DNA of 47,243 bases from Patiriisocius sp. (GTDB lineage: Bacteria; Patescibacteriota; Minisyncoccia; Phycocordibacterales; UBA918): contig JBLHQB010000003.1 of NCBI GenBank assembly GCA_047624725.1, positions 1 through 47,243 on the forward strand. The letters run 5' to 3'. Every line of letters starts with the position of its first letter. Position 1 is the first letter of the stretch. A program made the position numbers and the translations under genes. The notes beneath the pieces were generated by a model. The model was not told where the DNA came from. It made no database searches and was given only the letters and a program-made list of their open reading frames with translations. This document shows positions 2,782-14,044 of this stretch, piece by piece.

Positions 2782-4545
2782 ATGAAAAACATGGATACAT
2801 ACAAGGCAGATAAGTATTTCTTGTATATTCGAAGGTCCCAAGATGCGGAAGATCGCCAGATGGCATCACTTGATGACCAAGAAAAAGAAATGAGGGAGGT
2901 GGCCAAGCGTCTCAACCTGAAAATTGCAGATGTCATTCATGAATCTCAATCAGCAAAACAACCTGGGAGACCTAAGTTTAATGAGATGATCGCACGTATT
3001 CACTCAGGTGAAGCTGATGGGATCCTTTGTTGGAAAATAAATAGACTTGCACGAAACCCTGTAGATGGTGGTCAGATATCTTGGCTGTTACAACAGCGTG
3101 TTATCAGCCATATACAGACATACACAAGAGACTACCAACCGTCCGATAATGTGATCATGATGGCTGTGGAGCTTGGTATGGCTAATCAGTTTGTGAATGA
3201 TTTGAGTGTGGATGTGAAACGTGGAATGAGGAATAAAGCTGAGAGAGGGTGGAACCCACAAAGACTGTTACCAATTGGGTATAAGCACAACAAAGGCTAC
3301 GAAAAAGGGGAAGATGAAATCATGACAAACGATGACATCCTGATTGTAGAGAGACTCTTTAGGGAGATGTTAACTGGTTCTTATTCCGCATCTGATATTC
3401 ATCGACTCTCTATAACTTATGGGTTGCTCAGTAAAAAAGGGAAGCCACGTACGCTCCAAACTATAGTAAATATGCTTACCAGTGAATTCTACTTTGGACA
3501 GTTTGCATGGAAAGACCAGGAGGGTAATCAGGTGAAACATGCAGGTGTACACGCCACTATTTTGACCGAAGTTGAATATAATAGGGTGCAACAGCTATTG
3601 GGTAAGAAAGGCCGCCCAACACGTGTTAACAAGCTAGATTTCGCCTTCAGGGGGCCTGTTAAATGTGGAGAGTGTAGTTGTAGTGTTACCGCTGAACATA
3701 AGACCAGGTGTATTTGCAGTAACTGTAAATTTAAGTTTTCATGCAAAGTTCAGACGGAGTGTCCAAAGTGTAATACTGATATTTCAGAGATGGAAAACCC
3801 AAAGCTCTACAACAATGTGTATTATCACTGCACTAAGAAGAACAAGGAGGTGAAGTGTTCACAGAGCGTGATTGATGAAACGGATTTAGAGAAGCAGATA
3901 TTGACGGAGCTAGGAAAAATAGAGATTAGTGATGATTTTTACCGATGGGCTGTAGAAGCTCTTAAATATATGCATGGAGATGAGATGGTGACTCAGGATG
4001 AGGTAGCTGAAAAGCTTGATAAGAAAGCTTCAGGACTACGTAACCGCCTCGACCAGCTTGTTGTGATGAGAGCTGATGGAGAGATCACAGGACAGCAGCT
4101 GTCTAAGATGAGTGAAGAATCTAACTCTGAACTAAGAGATTTAGAAGGTGAACAAAAACGATTGTATAACAGAATGTCAGAATGGGTAGTTTCTGCAGAC
4201 AAGTACTTAACCTTTGCTGAGAAAGCTTGTGAGAGATTTAATATATCGAGTAACCAAGAGAAAAGAGAGATGCTTGAAACATTAGGTTCGACACTGGAGC
4301 TAATAGATAAAAAACTTAGAGTTGTAGTGCCCAATGAGCTGTTAGGGTTCAGTAACGTATATAAAAAGATGGGTAATGACTTAGGAAGGTTCGACACCAA
4401 AAAAGCCCTTGATATACAAGGACTTTCTGGGCAAAAGCGTGAAGCTTTTACTAATCTGTGCGCCGAGCAGGATTCGAACCTGCGTAGAATAAATTCGGGA
4501 AGTTTACAGCCTCCTGCGATTGACCACTCCGCCATCGACGCTTAA
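2782..4545 (+). CDS. large serine recombinase (resolvase + recombinase + Zn ribbon + coiled coil)
   Basis: YIRRSQD catalytic Ser motif, ESQSAKQPGRPKF, WKINRLARN, PIGY, Cys-rich ribbon CGEC...YYHC, C-terminal coiled coil. Confidence 0.95.
   Translation: MKNMDTYKADKYFLYIRRSQDAEDRQMASLDDQEKEMREVAKRLNLKIADVIHESQSAKQPGRPKFNEMIARIHSGEADGILCWKINRLARNPVDGGQISWLLQQRVISHIQTYTRDYQPSDNVIMMAVELGMANQFVNDLSVDVKRGMRNKAERGWNPQRLLPIGYKHNKGYEKGEDEIMTNDDILIVERLFREMLTGSYSASDIHRLSITYGLLSKKGKPRTLQTIVNMLTSEFYFGQFAWKDQEGNQVKHAGVHATILTEVEYNRVQQLLGKKGRPTRVNKLDFAFRGPVKCGECSCSVTAEHKTRCICSNCKFKFSCKVQTECPKCNTDISEMENPKLYNNVYYHCTKKNKEVKCSQSVIDETDLEKQILTELGKIEISDDFYRWAVEALKYMHGDEMVTQDEVAEKLDKKASGLRNRLDQLVVMRADGEITGQQLSKMSEESNSELRDLEGEQKRLYNRMSEWVVSADKYLTFAEKACERFNISSNQEKREMLETLGSTLELIDKKLRVVVPNELLGFSNVYKKMGNDLGRFDTKKALDIQGLSGQKREAFTNLCAEQDSNLRRINSGSLQPPAIDHSAIDA
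4459..4541 (-). tRNA. tRNA-Tyr (GTA), CCA not encoded
   Basis: revcomp GCGTCGA-TG-GCGGAGTGGTCAATCGC-A-GGAGG CTGTAAA CTTCC-variable arm-GCAGG TTCGAAT CCTGC-TCGGCGC-A; all stems pair. Confidence 0.95.
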
Positions 4546-5160: not shown

Positions 5161-5281
5161 AAGAAGATTGTAATGATCAAAGTAGAGTGTACATAGAACT
5201 GCTATATTTGACTTATTATAACCCCAAGTTATCACATATTGGATAAACAGGGAAGTGGATGGGCGTGATACCATTAGGGAA

Positions 5282-6271
5282 ATGAAATGGTGTAGCGCAA
5301 TGGTTAGTCTGGTGACGGTATTCTTGTTCACGAACGTGAGTGGTGTTTTTGCGCAGGTGTTGGTTCCTGCTGGACGTAATGGTGATTTTAGCGCTTCGGG
5401 CTATGGGACGTGTGAGTTTATTGAGTTGGTGAATAATGGGATTGGGTTCCTTATTGGATTGTTTTCACTGCTTGCAGTTATTGTCTTTGTCTATGCAGGA
5501 TTCCTGATGGTTTCTTCTGCGGGTAATATGCCGAGGATTCAGCAAGCACGAGGCTTGTTTACGAACGTCGCCATTGGACTAGTGATTATGCTCTCTGCAT
5601 TTCTAGTGGTTAACACTATCTTGAGTGTTCTCTCTGGAGGGAGCGCGTTTAATTGGGAAACTATTGAGTGCTCGTATGAGAATCAGACGGGAGAGGCAGT
5701 AGGAATTGATATTACTCTTGAGCAATATGTTGCATCGGGACGGTGGGTGAGTACCGGGTCAGAATATGGTGGGGGCGGAGGTCAGGTGTCACCAGGAGGA
5801 ACTTGCAGTATCGTAACCAGCGGAGCCTGTTCAGTAGATAGCTTACGCCCATATTTTGGTGCACGTGCAGAAGAGGCTTCACAGATTTGTAATATGGAGA
5901 GTGGTGGGGCCCCTGTTGCATCCCGGTCTGATATTTGCTGTGGAAGTCATGACCCGAGTCAGTGTGATAACTACTCCTTCTCTGGTGGGTATTTCCAAAT
6001 TAACATTTTAGCCCATGGGAATTCCTTAGGATGTGCCTCTAATTTCTATGAACGAAATGGCTCTGGCACACAAGGTGATTGTATCCGCAGAACATCTGAA
6101 GGGATTTGTATCGGTTGGTCATGTAGAATTACTGATGTACCGGCATATCAAAGTTGTATGGCCAGGACTATGAGCCAGGATACAAATTTCGCTACCGCTG
6201 GTAGACTATTTAACCAAAGCGGTTTTCAGCCCTGGTCATGGTCTGCACGACGTTGTAATGTTCCGTTCTAA
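5282..6271 (+). CDS. VirB2/TrbC-like pilin fused to C-terminal lysozyme-like/lytic transglycosylase domain
   Basis: signal peptide ending VFAQ, pilin pattern VYAGFLMVSSAGN...ARGLFTNVAIGLVIML, then ICNMESGG (catalytic Glu), GYFQIN, GFQPWS. Confidence 0.75.
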   Translation: MKWCSAMVSLVTVFLFTNVSGVFAQVLVPAGRNGDFSASGYGTCEFIELVNNGIGFLIGLFSLLAVIVFVYAGFLMVSSAGNMPRIQQARGLFTNVAIGLVIMLSAFLVVNTILSVLSGGSAFNWETIECSYENQTGEAVGIDITLEQYVASGRWVSTGSEYGGGGGQVSPGGTCSIVTSGACSVDSLRPYFGARAEEASQICNMESGGAPVASRSDICCGSHDPSQCDNYSFSGGYFQINILAHGNSLGCASNFYERNGSGTQGDCIRRTSEGICIGWSCRITDVPAYQSCMARTMSQDTNFATAGRLFNQSGFQPWSWSARRCNVPF

Positions 6272-6818
6272 TAATATGTTCAAAAATAAATTATTTGTTA
6301 CTGGTGTTGTCGTAGTGGTCCTGGTAGCGACCTTAGTTTTTAGAATAGTTTTTCTTAGTGATGCACCAACTTCGTCACAATACCCAGAACTCCCTGATGT
6401 ATCACTTGGTGAGTTTGATTCTAATGATCAAACCGAACCTGGAACTGTACTGAGTGGCCCCTCTGTACTTTCAGTAACCGGACAGCGCGTGCAAGTGCGT
6501 GATTTTAGTAATGATGCCGATACGTTTGTTTTTACGCCTGAAACGATTGTTCTTGGTGAAGAAGAAGGGCTCGTCGATACGCAATATAGAATTTTCTATT
6601 TTCCCGAGGATGGGAGCATCACCATTTCACTTCTGTCAGAACCGTTACACATTTCCCGTGAACTAGCCCAAGAAGAACTTGCAACATCGCTCGGTCTTTC
6701 TGAGGCCTTGTTATGTTCTTTTACTATTAGGGTAACCACACCGCGAACGGTGTCTGACCCGTATGCAGGACGCAACCTTGGCCTGAGTTTTTGTGATACT
6801 AGTGTATCTTTGAATTAA
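6258..6818 (+). CDS. single-TM exported hypothetical protein in pilin operon
   Basis: N-terminal TM helix; C-terminal YRIFYF...ITISLL...LLC...LSFC with a Cys pair; start may be 6276. Confidence 0.7.
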   Translation: MFRSNNMFKNKLFVTGVVVVVLVATLVFRIVFLSDAPTSSQYPELPDVSLGEFDSNDQTEPGTVLSGPSVLSVTGQRVQVRDFSNDADTFVFTPETIVLGEEEGLVDTQYRIFYFPEDGSITISLLSEPLHISRELAQEELATSLGLSEALLCSFTIRVTTPRTVSDPYAGRNLGLSFCDTSVSLN

Positions 6819-6819
6819 T

Positions 6820-7716
6820 ATGAAATACCTCACACTGTTACCATTATTTATTTTCCTACTCATTCCAGAATCAATTTCTGCACAGGGTTTCCTTACCTGT
6901 GTTGGGGATGATTGTAACTACTGCACATTGATACAAACAGTAAACTCAGTTACTGACTGGGTGCTGGTTGTATCTATTTTGATTGCAGTAATACTGCTTA
7001 TGTATCAGGGATTTAGAATAGCAGGATCCCGAGGTGATGTGTCTGCATTTGCGCAAGCACGCTCAAGTTTTGCCAACATAGTTATCGGTATTTTTATCAT
7101 CATGGCAGCAGGGACTATTATCGATACATTGATGAAGTCTGTGGCTGGAGGGCAATTTGGATTATGGAATCAGCCGACTAGTTGCGGGGGAGCATTTGAG
7201 GCTGGAAGTGCTACGGACATAGATATAGAACTTCATGAGCATGAGGCTTCTGAAGCACTTACTGATAACCCATACGGTGAAGGAGGAGTCTATGCTCTGG
7301 AAGGTCCAGAAGCAGGTACGACCGCACCACCGTCAGGTACTGCTGATGGTTCATTTACCTATCAATCAGGCATCTCAGCACAGCGTGGACACGCATCGCC
7401 CGCATTAAGTTCCATGCTCAATTGTATGGCACAACGAGTTCCGGGAAATGTTGGTCAAATTTCATCGATATCCGACAGTCGTATTGTTAACGGTTCACAA
7501 ACGTTTCAGTCATGCGTATCTGGAGGTTGTGCACACGTGAGAAACTCTCGTCACTATGGTGGTGCTACCTGCACAGGAAGTTCATACGCAGTAGATTTTG
7601 GTGATGAACAAAATGTAGGGGTTATTTGTCAGGCAGCAAATGCTTGCGGAAGTGTGAGCAGTTGTAGCGTGCATAACGGTAATCACGTTCACTTAAGTCT
7701 ACCCTTGTCTTGTTAA
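6820..7716 (+). CDS. VirB2/TrbC-like pilin fused to C-terminal M15-like (LAS) zinc peptidase domain
   Basis: pilin pattern MYQGFRIAGSRGD...ARSSFANIVIG; C-terminal NSRHYGG...AVDF...HVHLS matches the H/D/HxH Zn-binding motif. Confidence 0.72.
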   Translation: MKYLTLLPLFIFLLIPESISAQGFLTCVGDDCNYCTLIQTVNSVTDWVLVVSILIAVILLMYQGFRIAGSRGDVSAFAQARSSFANIVIGIFIIMAAGTIIDTLMKSVAGGQFGLWNQPTSCGGAFEAGSATDIDIELHEHEASEALTDNPYGEGGVYALEGPEAGTTAPPSGTADGSFTYQSGISAQRGHASPALSSMLNCMAQRVPGNVGQISSISDSRIVNGSQTFQSCVSGGCAHVRNSRHYGGATCTGSSYAVDFGDEQNVGVICQAANACGSVSSCSVHNGNHVHLSLPLSC

Positions 7717-7717
7717 T

Positions 7718-8590
7718 ATGAAACTATTTTCCTTAGTCAGTCTCTTCTTTCTTTTGCCAAGTATGATCTTCGCGCAGGGTGGTCTTGTGGCGTGCACGGG
7801 CGGGGACACGTGTGGGTTTTGTGAGTTGGTGTTGATGGTAAATAATATTGTTGAATGGTTGGTAATTATTGTGACTACGCTGACCGTGCTCCTTATAGCG
7901 TTTGCTGGATTTCGATTGATTACCTCAGGAGGTGACGCGCAGGCATTACAAGACGCGAAGAAGTATCTCTTTAATGCACTTATCGGAATTTTGATTATTC
8001 TTGCTGGATGGACGATTGTGGATACGGTATTAAAATTGGTAGCAGGTGGTGACTTGGGAGTATGGCAGCCACTATCGTGTGAGTACGCGAATCCTGCTGG
8101 AGAAATTCGGGATTATGAAGTTACCAATACGGTCAATGTTGCAGAGAGTAGGCCAGCTGGAGGAGGGGGAGTCCTGCCTGTTGCGGGCACTGGTGCGAAT
8201 GGTCCAGCTGGAGGTGCAGTGCCTTCTGAAACTGGAACCACTGTTCCAGGAGGAAGTGCTGGTACAAATGGCCCGGCTGGTGGTACTGGGTCTACAGGGA
8301 ATGGATCTACGGGCAGCACACCGTTGGATATAACTATTGGCGGAAATGTTCCTCAAGAGGTGACCCCCATTACTGATACCACGGTATACACAGTTAATCC
8401 GAGTGCTTCGTATGTGATCCATGAACCTGCTATGACTGAGTATGGTATCGAGGCGGGGGAGAGTCATGGCAATGCTATTGAGATAGTGGGAGTGTATAAC
8501 AATAGAATGCTGTATGTACGGGATTTGGTTGAGGGTAGAGAGTATGCGTTGGGGTGTCAGTTGGTGATGCCGGTGTTGGAGGGGTGTTAG
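7718..8590 (+). CDS. VirB2/TrbC-like pilin with Gly-rich linker and unknown C-terminal domain
   Basis: signal peptide, GLVAC..C.FC, AFAGFRLITSGGD...AKKYLFNALIG; linker with NGPAGG x2. Confidence 0.75.
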   Translation: MKLFSLVSLFFLLPSMIFAQGGLVACTGGDTCGFCELVLMVNNIVEWLVIIVTTLTVLLIAFAGFRLITSGGDAQALQDAKKYLFNALIGILIILAGWTIVDTVLKLVAGGDLGVWQPLSCEYANPAGEIRDYEVTNTVNVAESRPAGGGGVLPVAGTGANGPAGGAVPSETGTTVPGGSAGTNGPAGGTGSTGNGSTGSTPLDITIGGNVPQEVTPITDTTVYTVNPSASYVIHEPAMTEYGIEAGESHGNAIEIVGVYNNRMLYVRDLVEGREYALGCQLVMPVLEGC

Positions 8591-8617
8591 GAAAAGAGAA
8601 AATTGAGTTAGTTACTG

Positions 8618-8952
8618 TTAATTTAGTCAGGAGATACTCTGGTCCCTGGCGGTCACAGGTTACTTACTATAACTGTTCGCATGTGCTCCACTTCTACTAA
8701 GTACCTTCGGCCCACGTGGACTCGTCCCGCTTTTTCTAATTCGTTGCACTCATAAGAACGCTGGACGCGACTCGCTGTTGCGTCGCCTAGGAAGGGCTCC
8801 TCACAACGCTCCGTCGTTCGAGCCCGCGCCGCACGTGACGCAGGTCACGTGCTTGGGCCCGCAAAAGAAAAAACTCCCCTGAGGGAGTCATTTTCTTTTG
8901 CGGGCAAGAAACCTGGCTTTCAGAACTGCATAGGAAGAGGGAGTGTATCAAG
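8618..8952. repeat. structured tRNA-flank repeat unit 1 (multi-hairpin, tRNA 3'-end mimic, conserved 53-bp arm)
   Basis: GGCGGTCACAGGTTAC motif; 8709-8724 identical to tRNA-Trp 10689-10704; 8769-8815 matches 10554-10599 with one indel; 8900-8952 matches 9937-9989 at 49/53. Confidence 0.85.
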
Positions 8953-8994
8953 TCGAGTATTGCTACTTTGCAAAGTTTGGTATCATAGACAGAT

Positions 8995-9510
8995 ATGAAA
9001 GATACTCTAAACAATATTGCGTATATTGATGGTCAAAATCTGCACCTCGGTACAACAAACCGTGACCCAAAGTGGAAGGTTGATTTAGCTCGCTTTCGTG
9101 TATACCTAGAGAAGAAATATCACGTTACTAAAGCATATTACTATCTAGGGTATGTGCAGGATGGAACTACTTACGAAAAGTTGTATGAAGAAATACAAGA
9201 AGCAGGTTTTATCCTTGTGTTCCGTGAACATAACTCTGCGATGAAAGGAACAAAGAAGGGGAATGTTGACTCTGACATTATCTTCTCGATTATGGAACGT
9301 ATGTATAAGAAAGAAGAGTTTAATAATGTCGTTCTTGTTTCGGGTGATGGTGATTATAAAAAGTTAGTTGATTTTTTGATTGCAGAGGATAGGTTGGAAA
9401 AAGTTTTATTTCCAAAGCAACGATATGCTTCATCTTTATACAACAGTATTGGTGAATGGTATCGAGCTGATTTGTCAGAACCAGATACTCGAAAGAAAAT
9501 AGGAAAATGA
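8995..9510 (+). CDS. NYN domain (LabA/PIN-like) ribonuclease
   Basis: AYIDGQNL, KGNVDSDII, VLVSGDGDY: conserved acidic NYN motifs. Confidence 0.92.
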   Translation: MKDTLNNIAYIDGQNLHLGTTNRDPKWKVDLARFRVYLEKKYHVTKAYYYLGYVQDGTTYEKLYEEIQEAGFILVFREHNSAMKGTKKGNVDSDIIFSIMERMYKKEEFNNVVLVSGDGDYKKLVDFLIAEDRLEKVLFPKQRYASSLYNSIGEWYRADLSEPDTRKKIGK

Positions 9511-9558
9511 AAAAGGGGCCTTAGGTAATTAGCCGTTCGGTCCCCTTTCTCTCGTGAT
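9510..9558 (-). ncRNA. candidate ~50-nt small RNA convergent on the NYN gene
   Basis: minus-strand promoter (9592-9565) followed by AUCACGAGAGAAAGGGGACC...GGCCCCUUUUU hairpin/terminator; no ORF. Confidence 0.45.
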
Positions 9559-9564
9559 GTTTAT

Positions 9565-9592
9565 ATAATAACGTAGCTAGGTTTTCTGTCAA
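9565..9592 (-). promoter_or_regulatory. sigma70-type promoter pointing toward the NYN 3' end
   Basis: revcomp TTGACA-16 nt-TATTAT. Confidence 0.55.
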
Positions 9593-9620
9593 GGGTTCTG
9601 GAGAATGATGTCAGGTACCA

Positions 9621-9989
9621 TTAATTTAGTAAGGAGATACTTTAGCCTGCTGGCGGTCACAGGTTACTAAGTATAATTCTTCACTTCGAAATGGGGTCAG
9701 CCACCATTAATCTAGTTAGGTAGTACTCTAATCCTGCTGCGGTCACGAGTTACTAAGTGTTCTCACTAGCTTCGCTGGTTGTGAGCACTAAGTACTCTCG
9801 ACCCCGGCTCGTCTGACGTGCTCGTAAACTCCGCGCGACATGACTCCGCCTCCCGTCAGAGCAGTAAGTGCCTCAAGGCACTTACTGAAAATAAGACACC
9901 TGATACGAAAGTATCAGGTGTCTTATTTTTGCTCTGGCGGGCAAGAAACATGGCTTTCAGAACTGTATAGGGAGAGGGAGTATATCAAG
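9621..9989. repeat. structured tRNA-flank repeat unit 2
   Basis: two copies of TTAAT(T/C)TAGT.AGG...GCGGTCAC..GTTACTAAG; 9851-9942 matches 10600-10691; 53-bp arm 9937-9989. Confidence 0.85.
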
Positions 9990-10071
9990 AGTAGTATTCA
10001 GGTGTTGCAGGAGTTTGTTCTGTAAAAAAAGCCGCCCCAGATTGGAACGGCTTTTGATCAGTAGTCACACC

Positions 10072-10245
10072 TTATCCATGAATGGATATTGACATACTGA
10101 TTGAAATCAAGCAAAGCGCAGGGATGGGGCTAAAGATAAGTGCAGTTTTGCACGCTTTAGCTTTTCCAAAATCTTCCTTCCTGATTTCGTAGATACCCAA
10201 ACCGAGCAACACGCTTGGCGCAAGTGTGAACAATAGAAAGTCCAT
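10072..10245 (-). CDS. 57-aa small membrane protein (not in ORF track)
   Basis: MDFLLFTLAPSVLLGLGIYEIRKEDFGKAKACKTALIFSPIPALCLISISMSISIHG; TAAGGAG SD, consensus promoter upstream, hairpin terminator 10024-10056. Confidence 0.7.
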   Translation of the reverse strand: MDFLLFTLAPSVLLGLGIYEIRKEDFGKAKACKTALIFSPIPALCLISISMSISIHG

Positions 10246-10274
10246 ATTTGGTACTCCTTAAATAAACCAACGTC

Positions 10275-10303
10275 ATTATAGCATGTAAAAGCCAGTATGT
10301 CAA
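10275..10303 (-). promoter_or_regulatory. consensus sigma70 promoter for the 57-aa ORF
   Basis: revcomp TTGACA-tactggcttttacatgc (17 nt)-TATAAT, perfect consensus. Confidence 0.8.
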
Positions 10304-10369
10304 TTTTTAGTTCAAATTATAACTTCGGTTATATGAATAAACACAGCAAAAGATGGATATTTTCTGAAA

Positions 10370-10691
10370 GCGGTCACGAATCACTAAGTATATCCCTTCG
10401 CTCCGCTCAGAATCTACTAAGTGTTCTCGACCCCGACTCAGCTATCGTACTCGCTTACGCTGCGTGCGATATGCTTCCGTCTCCCGCTGCGGTCACGAGT
10501 TACTAACTATTTTATTTCACTACGTTCATAAACTAGTAAGTACTCTCGACCCCGACTCGCTGTTCGTCGCCTAGGAAGGGCTCCTCACAACGCTCCGTCT
10601 CCCGCCAGAGCCGTAAGTGCCTCAAGGCACTTACTAAAAAGAAGACACCTGATACTTTTGTATCAGGTGTCTTCTTTTTGCTCTGGCGGGC
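10370..10691. repeat. structured tRNA-flank repeat unit 3, directly downstream of tRNA-Trp
   Basis: two GCGGTCACGA..ACTAA[hairpin]AAGT..TCTCGACCCCGACTC modules, AAGTGCCTCAAGGCACTT hairpin, long hairpin closed by CCCGCCAGAG/CTCTGGCGGG. Confidence 0.85.
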
Positions 10692-10757
10692 CCACGTGGA
10701 CTCGAACCACGGCCGCTGGTTTTGGAAACCAGAATTCTACCACTAAACTATAGGCCC
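10684..10757 (-). tRNA. tRNA-Trp (CCA), CCA end encoded
   Basis: revcomp GGGCCTA-TA-GTTTAGTGGTAGAAT-T-CTGGT TTCCAAA ACCAG-CGGC-CGTGG TTCGAGT CCACG-TGGGCCC-GCCA. Confidence 0.95.
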
Positions 10758-10982
10758 TTAAAATCTCTGGGAGAGATTTAAAGCATAGTGCAAAACGCAC
10801 TTCACTTTTCATCCAGCTCCTCTGCAGATCAGTGTCCGGGGGATTGTTTAAGCATAGTGCAATACTCTGCTCAACAATCACCTGTATCGGATACCAGACC
10901 TGCTTTCGCATACGTCTGGGTGAGAAATTACTCCCATCTCCAATATCGGATCGCTACATAGTAGTCGAAGCTACGCGATAGG

Positions 10983-11876
10983 TCAATTGTTCAAGAAGGA
11001 TTGTACTGTGGCGTTGATTTCTTCGGTCTGGTCTTTGGTGAACCACTGGACTGACTTATCTTTCTTTAGCCAGGCGATCTGCTTCTTTGCGTACTGCCAG
11101 TTTTTCTCGATGAACTTTTGAAGGAACTCTTCTTGGGTGATGGTCTGGTCGTATAGCTCTAATCCTAAGATGTATTCGAAGCCGATTTCGTGTAGGCGTT
11201 CTCGGGTGAGACCTGAGTCTAGGAGGTTTTTGATTTCCCCCATGTAGCCCATCTCAAGCCACGCCTCTGCGCGTTGTTTGAATCGGACTCGCAATGCTTC
11301 TTTTTCGGTGATGATTCCGATAGTCAGGACGTCGTATGGTTCGTTAGTTGGGATTACAGGCACACTTCCTATGCAAGCGATTATCTCTATTGCACGGATG
11401 AGTCGTCGTCGGTTTTGTGGATCGACTTCAGCAGCTCGGCGGGGGTCGTGTTCGCGCAGTTCGTTGTAGAGCTCTTCGGTGGTGTTTTCTTCTAGCTTTG
11501 CACGCAAGGCGGGGTTGGGGGCTACTGGGGGCGCGGTAATGCGACCGAGGAGTGTATCTACATAGAAAAAGGTTCCTCCGGCGATGATGGGGAGGCTGTT
11601 GCGTGCAAGGATACCTTCAAGAGCGTCTGTCGCGTCGTTCTTGAAGTTGTCAGCGTTGTATATAGCGGTTGGGTCAACCATGTCCAAGAGATGGTGGGGG
11701 ATGCCTTGCATTTCTTCTGTGGTGACCTTGCCACTACCGATATCGAGTTGTTTGTATACTTGTCGTGAGTCAGCGGAAATAACCTCGCCGGAGAATTGCT
11801 TTGCGAGTTTAATGGAGAGTGATGTTTTACCTGAGGCTGTGGGGCCTGCGATGGTGAGGATTTTGGGTTTTTGCAT
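10983..11876 (-). CDS. miaA: tRNA dimethylallyltransferase
   Basis: GPTASGKT, ISADSRQVY, DIGSGK, PHHLLD, AGGTFFY, YAKKQ; likely start ATG 11876 (MQKPK). Confidence 0.95.
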   Translation of the reverse strand: MQKPKILTIAGPTASGKTSLSIKLAKQFSGEVISADSRQVYKQLDIGSGKVTTEEMQGIPHHLLDMVDPTAIYNADNFKNDATDALEGILARNSLPIIAGGTFFYVDTLLGRITAPPVAPNPALRAKLEENTTEELYNELREHDPRRAAEVDPQNRRRLIRAIEIIACIGSVPVIPTNEPYDVLTIGIITEKEALRVRFKQRAEAWLEMGYMGEIKNLLDSGLTRERLHEIGFEYILGLELYDQTITQEEFLQKFIEKNWQYAKKQIAWLKKDKSVQWFTKDQTEEINATVQSFLNN

Positions 11877-11924
11877 TAAGGGGAGTGTAGCATTTGGGAG
11901 GGGAGGGCTCAATGGGAGGGACTT

Positions 11925-12204
11925 GGTCAGGAGTCGGTTATTTTTATATTCCCTTTGGTCATTAAAAATATACCGCTCACGACCCTGGCTCGTCTGTTGC
12001 CAAGGCAACATGACTGCGCCTTTCAAGTCCCTCGCGAAAGTGCCTCAAGGCACTTTCTCTCCTGCACAAATGAAAAGACTCCCACGGGGGAGTCTTTTCA
12101 TTTGTGCAGGAGGAGGGACTTGAACATTACATGTTCTGTACAGGTTGTCACCATTTTCTGAGGAAAATGCTAGGCAACCTTTTCGATCCCCTCCCAAGGT
12201 GCAG
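11925..12204. repeat. structured repeats downstream of tRNA-Leu (two families)
   Basis: 11925-12125 shares GGTCA.GAGT..CTC.CGACCC.GGCTCGTCTG..ACATGACT.CGCC and AAGTGCCTCAAGGCACTT with unit 2; 12139-12190 matches revcomp of 28150-28200; 12182-12204 is an inverted copy of the tRNA-Leu 3' end. Confidence 0.8.
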
Positions 12205-12255
12205 CTAATACTCAATTAAAAGCTCCACGTATTCGCTCTTACTTTCGTTTATCTG

Positions 12256-12337
12256 TGCCTCGGGAGGGAATCGAACCCTCACCCCTTACGGAACACGATT
12301 TTGAGTCGTGCGCGTCTACCAATTCCGCCACCGAGGC
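12256..12337 (-). tRNA. tRNA-Leu (CAA)
   Basis: revcomp GCCTCGG-TG-GCGGAATTGGTAGACGC-G-CACGA CTCAAAA TCGTG-variable arm-GAGGG TTCGATT CCCTC-CCGAGGC-A. Confidence 0.95.
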
Positions 12338-12466
12338 ATCTCTGTGTCCAAGAGTGTACCAGATTATTGCGAAGTTATAAACAGGGGGCCTGCGTATTGG
12401 GTATGGTAAAATAATTGAAACGAGTCCAGTTTTGGAAGTAAAAGCTCGCTTTTTTGTATTGTACTT

Positions 12467-14044
12467 ATGGCATTTCAAGGTGATTCTATTTTCTGGGTGG
12501 AGGTAGGGAAGGTTGTTCCTAATCCATTCCAACCACGTCGTGAATTTAACGAGGATAAACTCAAGGAGTTGTCTGAGTCTGTTCGTATGTACGGTATCCT
12601 GCAACCGCTTACGGTGACCCGTAAGGAGATTCAGCGTGCTGATGGTGCATTCTATACTGAATACGAACTCATTGCAGGAGAGCGACGTTTACGGGCTTCT
12701 AAGCTGGCAGGACTGGAGCAGGTGCCGGTGATTATCCGTTCTGGAGAAGATACTGATCAAGAGAAGCTTGAGTTGGCAATTATTGAAAACTTGCAGCGTG
12801 AAGATCTTAATGCTGTTGACCGTGCCATAGCGTTCAAGCAACTTGCTGAGGTGTTCACACTCTCTCATGCACAAGTGGCTAAGAAGGTGGGGCGATCACG
12901 AGAGTACGTTTCTAATAGTATTCGACTACTAGGGCTTCCTGAGTGCATGCTTAACTCGCTGAAGCTTGGAGATATTTCTGAGGGGCACGCACGAACGCTT
13001 TTGATGCTTAAAGAGCGTCCTGAAGAGCAAGACGTGGTGTATCGTGAGATTCTGCTTAAGAAACTATCTGTTCGTGAGGTTGAGCGTATTGCACGAAAGA
13101 TCGCTACTGACAAAGTACGGAAGAAGAAGTGGAGTGATACTGATGCGCATCTGATTGCTATTGAAAAAGAATTTACTACTACACTTGGAACTCGCGTACA
13201 GATCTCTAAGACAGACTTTGGCGGAAAACTAACGATCGATTATTTCTCAGATGAGGATCTTCAGAAGCTACTCCAGCTGATGAAGTCTGAAGAAGAGGAG
13301 AAGAAAAATGACGAAACTGAAGAAGGGGAGGAGTCAGGAACGGTGATTACTGAGATGTCCTCTGAGGCTTCTATCATGGCAAAGATCAGTGCAGCAACGC
13401 CATTGGCGGTTGTGCCAGAGGTAATAGAGCAGACACAGGAACCAGTAATCGAAGTGCCAGCCGGTATTGAACAGCTACAGGAGCTTGTAGATACTGAGGC
13501 AGTTGGGTACGTAGCGCCGGATAGTCCGATTATTGCAGATGAGGTGATCCTTGATGTAGTAGAAGACGTAGCACTCAATGAAGATCTAGAAGGTGGTGAT
13601 GGGGTTATTGATTCTCCTGCAGAAACGCTTGCAGCAATTGCGCAGCAAGCACCAGAGTCTCCAATTACCGAAGAGCGTGAAGAATTATCTTCAGCGTTGG
13701 ATACTGCAATGGCTGATCCTATTGCAAGTGTTGCACAAAGTCTTACCTCTGAAGTTCCTGAGGTAACTCCGGTAGTGGAAGTTGCATCGTCACCAGAGCC
13801 AGAACAGGCGCAAGCTCCAGAGCCTATGCGATCACCCGTTGACTTGGGAAGTGATGAGTTTTCATTTGTCCGTGAACACGGTGAACAGGCACGAGAAAAG
13901 GATCTAGTAATGCCGTACCAGAGCCAGCAATCAGAACCTGTCGTTGAGACTACAGCTCCATCAGAAATGACTGAAACTCCCGTGAAGGAGGAGGAAGAAA
14001 GTGAAGATGAAGATTTGTACTCTATGAAGAACTTCTCTCTGTAG
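12467..14044 (+). CDS. parB: ParB/Spo0J partition protein with long acidic C-terminal extension
   Basis: PNPFQPRR, GILQPL, ELIAGERRLRA, IIENLQREDLN, HTH VAKKVGRSREYVSN. Confidence 0.92.
   Translation: MAFQGDSIFWVEVGKVVPNPFQPRREFNEDKLKELSESVRMYGILQPLTVTRKEIQRADGAFYTEYELIAGERRLRASKLAGLEQVPVIIRSGEDTDQEKLELAIIENLQREDLNAVDRAIAFKQLAEVFTLSHAQVAKKVGRSREYVSNSIRLLGLPECMLNSLKLGDISEGHARTLLMLKERPEEQDVVYREILLKKLSVREVERIARKIATDKVRKKKWSDTDAHLIAIEKEFTTTLGTRVQISKTDFGGKLTIDYFSDEDLQKLLQLMKSEEEEKKNDETEEGEESGTVITEMSSEASIMAKISAATPLAVVPEVIEQTQEPVIEVPAGIEQLQELVDTEAVGYVAPDSPIIADEVILDVVEDVALNEDLEGGDGVIDSPAETLAAIAQQAPESPITEEREELSSALDTAMADPIASVAQSLTSEVPEVTPVVEVASSPEPEQAQAPEPMRSPVDLGSDEFSFVREHGEQAREKDLVMPYQSQQSEPVVETTAPSEMTETPVKEEEESEDEDLYSMKNFSL

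Follow-up and report, generated by a model that had tools for sequence, protein, structure and literature searches.

Large serine recombinases (LSRs) are usually linked to protein-gene targets. In streptococci, the integrative and conjugative elements and cis-mobilizable elements (ICE/CIME) include recombinase-less units, flanked by attachment (att) sites, that lie beside a recombinase-bearing element and can leave together with it; these depend on tyrosine integrases and identical att cores and are much larger than the cassettes described here. In archaeal viruses of the SSV type, attP lies inside the integrase gene and integration at a tRNA splits this gene, but the enzyme is a tyrosine recombinase and a large part of the gene is separated, unlike the 24-codon tail discussed below. 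The closest known system is that of the Dehalococcoides ssrA islands, in which the gene of the LSR DsiB lies at the island edge and overlaps both attP/attL and the antisense target RNA gene (McMurdie 2011, PMC3146451). Islands of this kind stand in tandem behind one RNA gene, some of them without the integration module; the terms 'cis-mobilizable elements' and 'accretion' are used for them in the passages of that paper considered here, and its authors suggested that dsiB may be complete only on the circle or beside an island with the 3′ fragment. Here we describe a related arrangement in a window of 47,243 nucleotides from Patiriisocius sp. (Patescibacteriota; contig JBLHQB010000003.1), where two small gene cassettes without a recombinase gene are stacked at the 3′ end of tRNA-Trp. 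We regard this locus as an accretion stack that arose from LSR elements integrating at the last bases of tRNA-Trp, a reading to which we assign a probability of about 0.7; the cassettes would then be passengers of an integrating element, or what remains of one, of a type already known but here unusually small and modular. The window's own assembly (756 kb, 46 contigs, 85.7% complete) was compared with 128 genomes of the genus and with public sequencing runs, the latter as Logan contigs and not as reads.

The tandem accretion of recombinase-bearing and recombinase-less units at one RNA gene is common to the Dehalococcoides islands and the present system. According to the parts of the source considered, the islands are many kb long, use a tmRNA target with insertion at the T-loop and a 20-bp repeat, and have a C-terminal overlap that is called divergent. 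The system described here differs in its targets, tRNA-Trp and tRNA-Glu (other tRNAs for other LSR families), which are entered at a core of 6–8 bp at the extreme 3′ end, and in its single-gene cassettes of 0.3–1.7 kb with gene-less terminator modules as boundaries. Furthermore, a +5 spacing rule is visible in its natural sites, and its far-end tail shows clear conservation at the protein level; this conserved tail provides protein-level evidence that the circle form of the LSR gene is the functional one. Repeated tRNA integration that pushes older elements outward, with partial tRNA copies and degenerate remnants, is also a feature of the Prochlorococcus tycheposons (10.1101/2020.12.28.424599). 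These are kilobases long, a minority of them carries an LSR (910 of 937 use tyrosine recombinases), and a recombinase gene split across an att site is not described in the passages of that source covered here. In the literature on Patescibacteria/Candidate Phyla Radiation tRNAs, hairpins and mobile elements and on serine recombinases with tRNAs (main texts, without supplements), we found no account of such a system in Patescibacteria.

With integrons the locus shares an ordered stack of small, mostly single-gene cassettes at one site, the newest beside the site. However, there is no IntI, attI, Pc promoter or attC hairpin; the recombinase rides on a mobile partner, a tRNA gene heads the array, and the hairpins are terminators and modules common to gene-less tRNA flanks. 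The integron-like capture platform proposed in the initial annotation was not borne out: we saw no fixed platform integrase, no tyrosine recombinase domain in the 14 ORFs (open reading frames) scanned around the locus between 310 and 18674, no common promoter and no attC hairpin in the arm. The window locus is not an integron.

The recombination target is formed by the last bases of tRNA-Trp, GCCCGC followed by CA in the sense of the tRNA. Its antisense, GCGGGC, is the core shared by all three joints of the locus (8900–8905, 9937–9942 and 10686–10691). Read outward from the tRNA, the locus is composed as follows.

10684–10757, minus strand: tRNA-Trp(cca), identified with ARAGORN (Rfam tRNA 64.9 bits), CCA encoded
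10686–10707, plus strand: B′ half-site, the antisense tRNA end GCGGGCCCACGTGGACTCGAAC, 22 nt from the core to the end of GAAC (T-loop motif)
10593–10691, plus strand: right arm B, with a stub antisense to the tRNA end, a small hairpin, a 20-bp terminator hairpin and then CTCTGGCGGGC
10360–10592, minus strand: stacked gene-less modules of cassette B, two class-2 modules at 119-nt spacing, each ending in GTGACCGC
10072–10245, minus strand: cargo of cassette B, a hydrophobic ORF of 57 amino acids (aa), with a hairpin and T-run around 10026–10058
9937–10025, plus strand: left arm B, with core 9937–9942, P′ half-site 9937–9963 (27 nt) and tail stop codon 10023–10025
9844–9942, plus strand: right arm A, paired with left arm B at an internal attL-type joint (B-like arm, P′)
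9601–9843, minus strand: stacked gene-less modules of cassette A, two units spaced 86 nt and one class-2 core
8995–9510, plus strand: cargo of cassette A, a 171-aa NYN-domain protein with a PIN-like nuclease fold (Pfam NYN 1.4e-15; PADLOC NYN 1.2e-4)
8900–8988, plus strand: left arm A, with core 8900–8905, P′ half-site 8900–8926, the decayed tail GQETWLSELHRKRECIKSSIATLQSLVS and stop codon 8986–8988
8598–8905, minus strand: older resident module, a former tRNA flank

The 53-bp left arm is present twice (8900–8952 and 9937–9989, 49 of 53 positions identical, 92.5%), and so is the right arm (9844–9942 and 10593–10691, 90% identity over 99 nt), each right arm with a perfect hairpin of 19–20 bp. 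A third terminator hairpin reaches 8905. In the sense of the tRNA, the stretch 8598–8905 consists of a terminator (8905–8857), an antisense tRNA end with a hairpin, a class-2-like core, a T-loop-to-acceptor copy (8724–8709) and a partial module; 16 bp of the tRNA T-arm/acceptor (10689–10704) are repeated exactly at 8709–8724. The initial annotation had already divided the locus at GCGGGC joints and marked both arms and the 16-bp tRNA copy, and repeat, hairpin and tRNA analysis confirmed these coordinates. Its remark that the units lack an integrase also stands, as domain scans found no recombinase gene in unit A or unit B. An Rfam scan of 7000–13000 (E ≤ 1) gave only two tRNAs above the gathering scores.

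Every internal joint is composed of a terminator arm followed by P′ (attL-type), and the joint at the tRNA of a terminator arm followed by B′ (attB-like). Judged by its sequence, right arm B is the tRNA-Trp terminator together with the B-type arm adjoining the tRNA; combined with the B′ half-site it would make up an attB-like site that is currently unoccupied. The layout of right arm B recurs as the left flank of arms in relatives. The window has two units and three joints; the units are bounded by att-type joints like those of an LSR-bearing element, lack the recombinase and lie in tandem at one target. The bases 3′ of the crossover at tRNA-Trp, CCA included, are contributed by the inserted DNA, and the encoded CCA varies with it: the tRNA ends in GCCCGCCA in the window and in loci L006 and L011 of relatives, in GCCCGCC in L008 and L010, and in GCCCGC in L005, L007, L009 and L012.

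Both arms are unique to the tRNA-Trp locus within the window's own assembly. In the genus, the left arm was found in 28 of the 128 genomes; matches to it also came from 54 records of metagenomes and 21 of genomes, which carry the names of Patescibacteria groups in their titles. Its junctions are of two types only, ...GCGGG/CAAGAAAC and ...GTGAC/CCATTAGC, and the downstream tRNA, where called in the locus, matches the arm type in 20 of 21 copies (16 Trp, 4 Glu; the exception is a tRNA-Leu at 2.6 kb). The 87 arms lead into 69 different following sequences. LSR-less cassettes with clean arm and terminator boundaries are found at dozens of loci without LSR fragments. The earlier proposal of separate cassettes joined at a tRNA end is upheld.

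Over its first 27 nt, the arm is similar to the antisense tRNA end, but its TC.GAAC motif is placed 5 nt farther from the shared core. The distance from the core to the end of GAAC amounts to 27 nt in all arms (43/43 of the Trp type, 45/45 of the Glu type) and to 22 nt in all 15 distinct tRNA-Trp genes and in 12 of 13 tRNA-Glu genes. In LSR sites, the zinc-ribbon motif of attB was reported to lie 5 bp nearer the centre than that of attP (Rutherford 2013, PMC3783163). As the +5 spacing equals this published attP/attB difference, we assign the arm to the P′ half-site and the tRNA end to B′. As in the sites described there, the distal motif is common to P′ and B′ and is placed 5 bp nearer the centre in attB; unlike the sites in the passages of that paper considered here, the distal motif is the tRNA T-loop TCGAAC, and attP is located inside the recombinase coding sequence. 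The left (B or P) arms of the sites showed no symmetry or spacing rule, with T-runs directly at the core or 5–6 nt off, and no inverted partner of the conserved arm was found at the other cassette end.

Beyond the half-site, the arm is protein-coding in one frame, (GGQET or GDPLA)WLSELY[RK]EREYIKSSIQ.LQELV, with a stop about 24 codons after the W. This conserved arm-encoded tail, WLSELYREREYIKSSIQ.. followed by the stop codon, has no start codon. Codon differences among 30 arm copies were 2487 synonymous and 4184 non-synonymous in this frame, compared with 570/5905 and 405/6039 (synonymous/non-synonymous) in the other two, and the in-frame changes include switches between the Ser codons TCG and AGT. 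Tail frame and stop are retained in nearly all LSR-less copies. The tail of cassette B equals the consensus and its frame, GG-QETWLSELYREREYIKSSIQVLQEFVL, again lacks a start codon, whereas the tail of cassette A has decayed, with H, K and C at conserved Y, E and Y positions. In none of 85 copies does the arm frame extend a long ORF, with at most 76 open codons upstream. A search of a large protein collection for long proteins ending in the tail (40-aa query; word-based and weak) returned only two ORFs of 80–91 aa. A scan of viral contigs with the arm gave one match, in another frame of an unrelated phage gene, which we discarded as chance.

The Trp-type recombinase was located in genome G049 by following the arm 12.6 kb away from tRNA-Trp. 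Here, a 12.6-kb element at tRNA-Trp carries the arm at its far end and the LSR gene at its tRNA end; between them are genes for an S51 peptidase, an alpha/beta hydrolase, Abi_2, a methyltransferase, an M23 peptidase and an AAA_25/DnaB-like protein. The LSR is a 578-aa ORF (Resolvase 1.1e-15, Recombinase 3.3e-12) that overlaps the antisense tRNA-Trp. It reads ...TCT GCT TTT TGC GGG CCC ACG TGG and the arm reads ..GC GGG CAA AAA ACG TGG, with the core GGG in the same codon phase, which is also the phase of left arm B in the window. This identity of phase places attP inside the recombinase gene and makes the arm an alternative 3′ end of the LSR. For the Glu type the phase fits as well (...ATT TGT GAC CC versus TGT GAC CCA TTA GCG TGG). 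On the excised circle, the G049 LSR would end in ...SAFCG-QKTWLSELYKEREYIKSSIQTLQELLA, and attP across the joint would read GCTTTTTGC-GG-GCAAAAAAC, with GG at the centre and GCGGGC as the shared core. These alignments show each cassette to start, on its tRNA-distal side, with the P′ half-site of an LSR attP fused to the last ~24 codons of this LSR, and they show the LSR ORF of the integrated state to run into the antisense tRNA instead.

Members of this Trp/Glu LSR family were found at 11 loci in 10 of the 128 genomes. Eight of the 11 read into a tRNA (1 Trp, 7 Glu, the latter including G129, G060 and five more), and these targets match the only two junction types of the arm. The three without tRNA read-in, L163 (G071), L168 (G068) and L170 (G060:C4), have other short tails such as ...AICEEILTLARTYFEQN; they may mark a different target or a different state of the site. 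Genome G129 has four arms in succession (positions 485, 1090, 2066 and 3260 of the flipped locus), after which come cargo and an LSR whose ORF extends into tRNA-Glu. This locus is an LSR element adjoining tRNA-Glu with three LSR-less cassettes of 0.6–1.2 kb beyond it, and the architecture of the window is that of G129 minus the LSR element.

The window itself encodes an LSR.

2782–4545, plus strand: LSR gene outside the cassettes (Pfam Resolvase 2.9e-18, Recombinase 5.3e-9)

Its ORF runs through the antisense of tRNA-Tyr (4458–4541, minus strand; ...REAFTNL/CAEQDSNLRR...) and thereby displays the gene-spans-att design within the same genome. The initial annotation had suggested a recombinase acting in trans, possibly of this kind. 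An LSR class acting from elsewhere agrees with our results, but the LSR at 2782–4545 is not the cognate enzyme, being of the tRNA-Tyr type and only 24% identical to the Trp/Glu family. A query of the Tyr type had matches in 82 of the 128 genomes; among the matches listed none is an LSR co-located with tRNA-Trp, for which this query is too distant. The design extends to other LSR families of the genus: at 23 of 30 LSR loci, the window's own among them, the ORF ends at a tRNA or tmRNA gene of the opposite strand, and 19 of the ORFs stop within this gene or past it. The +5 spacing and the in-phase tails recur at the far ends of LSR elements specific for tRNA-Tyr and tRNA-Asn, and the far-end tails of another LSR family, at L081, L077 and L072 (Tyr, Asn and His elements; spacing of the His element counted by eye) share the motif [ED]VRT[AV]...F[LI]P[NSA][FS]. 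The far end of the window's Tyr element was not found in its assembly, with one chance match; the element extends past the contig start. The terminator hairpins of tRNA-Tyr are the antisense of the 3′ coding part of this LSR. Repeated palindromic words similar to GGTTCGAACC (peptide LGSN) occur in the C-terminal part of LSR genes (window 4270–4290 and 4385–4400; L081, L077), and this word is the tRNA T-loop motif used by the att half-sites. Genome G074 has, on the far side of its LSR element, a second cassette without an LSR, which carries an HD-domain-like gene.

The multi-hairpin modules of the two units are not private to the locus, but belong to a family dispersed behind other tRNA genes. 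Nearly every tRNA gene in the window's genome is followed by one to three gene-less modules, and class-2 copies stand behind tRNA-Thr, Ile, Met, Cys, Ala, Phe, His and Val. Read in the sense of the tRNA, a module consists, in order, of a terminator hairpin and an antisense copy of the tRNA 3′ end, which a small hairpin often interrupts; then come a core of class 1 or class 2 and a direct copy of the stretch from T-loop to acceptor. Examples in genome G000 are listed below.

C26:2039–2380: module behind tRNA-His
C19:8900–9075: module behind tRNA-Arg
C12:12880–13045: module behind tRNA-Asn

A cognate antisense copy of at least 12 nt (one mismatch allowed) was present at 19 of 29 tRNAs, compared with only 35 of 780 non-cognate pairings. 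The length of the direct copy is exactly that of an LSR B′ half-site, which means that each module duplicates an attB-like site. The small hairpin of the module occupies the position of the extra 5 bp of the P′ arms.

On the proposed accretion, an LSR element would integrate at the joint of a terminator arm and the tRNA end. Excision that pairs the LSR-side site with any attL farther out would pick up the intervening cassettes, while excision of the inner part alone, from the LSR element's own arm, would leave outer cassettes behind. Each cassette would be closed by the terminator module that adjoined the tRNA at the time of the next integration, and the tRNA would regain a neighbouring attB-like site. 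The 69 following sequences behind 87 arms, the species-variable tRNA-Trp flanks and the retained tail frame all fit this accretion. Content behind tRNA-Trp indeed differs between species: in G021 (L009), a layout of the 8598–8905 type directly abuts tRNA-Trp and represents an empty site, and G022 has a different cargo there. The searches that the initial annotation had called for, with the arm and across tRNA-Trp flanks, thus speak for a variable locus. Retention of the tail frame in LSR-less copies is expected if it is the lineages with a working tail that become re-mobilised. Under accretion, cassette A would be the older, outer unit, given its decayed tail and its occurrence in G002, and cassette B, with a consensus tail and a unique cargo, the younger, inner one. 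As no cognate LSR is present in the assembly, the window cassettes appear stranded.

Several points weigh against this reading. A Trp/Glu-type LSR was not found in the window's assembly at its 85.7% completeness, an ORF uniting an LSR body with the WLSELY tail was not found anywhere, and no excised circle or cassette-skipping joint was seen in the contigs of public runs. We infer pick-up and drop-off from static architectures, and to our knowledge LSRs do not recombine attL with attB. Known LSR chemistry also leaves unaccounted for how an LSR-less cassette gained its own terminator arm, and the LSR model leaves the origin of the gene-less modules unexplained. Finally, the similarity of 90–92% between the arms of A and B in a single genome could also be the product of a local duplication in which the cargo was replaced.

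Such a duplication of one unit, or an assembly artefact at the repeats, is the least probable of the alternatives that we considered. Public contigs do break at the repeats, and one has a hybrid right arm, but cargos A and B have no relation to each other, elsewhere the arm occurs in front of 69 other cargos, and G002 shares the NYN cassette together with its arm (~71% protein identity). The arms differ at 4/53 and 10/99 positions and would for this reason not collapse in assembly; contigs of run X1 tile 7800–10594 with 0 differences outside the right-arm hairpin. We consider it very unlikely, too, that single-stranded hairpin sites were captured in trans by a tyrosine recombinase, a Xer-type enzyme or an unknown enzyme, as in an integron-like or folded-hairpin system. 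It is true that the gene-less modules, with their order of site, terminator, antisense site, core and site, resemble an integrated attC-type hairpin. For the gene cassettes, the single-strand attC-like dumbbell was set aside in view of the coding capacity and P′-type geometry of an arm that completes an LSR ORF, a rejection that does not extend to the gene-less modules; moreover, the arm of these cassettes has no inverted partner, cassette B lies in opposite orientation with its own promoter, and the scanned ORFs around the locus contain no tyrosine recombinase.

Decay in place has more to recommend it, although we judge it improbable. Two full LSR elements would have integrated successively and each would have decayed by internal deletion, without any pick-up or drop-off, so that the far arm, one gene and terminator modules inserted later are the sole remains. 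The decayed tail of cassette A, the G002 tail without a stop, truncated LSR genes within the genus (L048, L055, L065) and the missing cognate LSR of the window's assembly would all be understandable in this way. However, a second LSR integration requires an attB that the first destroys, and decay does not readily give small cassettes with clean boundaries at dozens of loci devoid of LSR fragments, nor a tail frame and stop kept in nearly all LSR-less copies.

If the accretion stack is accepted, a mover is proposed for a module family of ultra-small bacteria, at any rate for the part of it that carries genes. The LSRs described here form families specific to individual tRNA ends, with the T-loop as the distal recognition motif, and genome sequences directly reveal their natural attP/attB pairs, a help in the search for new recombinase tools. 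With a recombinase gene that extends across its own attP and has a conserved alternative tail, the suggestion from Dehalococcoides becomes directly testable. Single-gene cassettes at tRNA ends (NYN nuclease, Abi protein) may be a main route of gene flux in genomes below 1 Mb that lack most classical mobile elements. More speculatively, and with doubts that outweigh our confidence, the swap of the C-terminal tail could act as a state switch: the LSR of the circle would end in the arm-encoded WLSELYREREYIKSSIQ and the integrated LSR in an antisense-tRNA peptide, LSR-less cassettes would serve as docking 'last exons', and a genome-wide cassette economy would be run by recombinases in trans. LSR activity or direction would then depend on where the LSR is located, and an LSR element excising at an outer arm would regain a complete gene and take cassettes along. 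In combination with gene-less modules, which would renew the terminator and supply a new attB after almost every tRNA, the cassette economy of Patescibacteria would be functionally parallel to integrons, yet built on LSR chemistry and tRNA ends.

Relatives of the NYN protein with 71–72% identity were found in three genomes: the arm is present in G002 and absent in G013, and in G012 the contig stops at the gene. In G002 (L002, G002:C2:1-2704), the arm tail without a stop codon runs in frame into the NYN gene. This cassette directly follows a gene similar to type IV secretion system (T4SS) pilins, and three class-1 modules with copies of the tRNA-Trp end come next. Just downstream of the NYN gene in the window, a strong promoter-like site on the minus strand (TTGACA-16-TATTAT, 11/12; 9565–9592) points antisense into the NYN 3′ end and could possibly give rise to an antisense RNA. 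The 57-aa ORF of cassette B had zero matches in Pfam, NCBIfam and PADLOC, and its cargo stretch had no match among 40 relatives; a promoter-like site (12/12) is located at 10303–10275.

None of the public contigs covers the whole stack. One X1 contig carries the hairpin version of right arm B at the position of right arm A (9887–9925, 7 differences), the alternatives being a graph artefact caused by the repeat and a genuine variant from gene conversion. Runs X2, X5 and X6 have uncovered parts, and an odd back-joint from 8981 to 8592 with 37 other letters is not interpretable. Just upstream (5′) of tRNA-Trp, a 31-nt direct repeat is found at 10766–10796 and 10835–10865 (77% identical). Three successive ORFs with T4SS-pilin (TrbC/VirB2-like) domains occupy 5255–8590, between the tRNA-Tyr and tRNA-Trp loci, and genes of this T4SS-pilin type also flank tRNA-Trp in several relatives.

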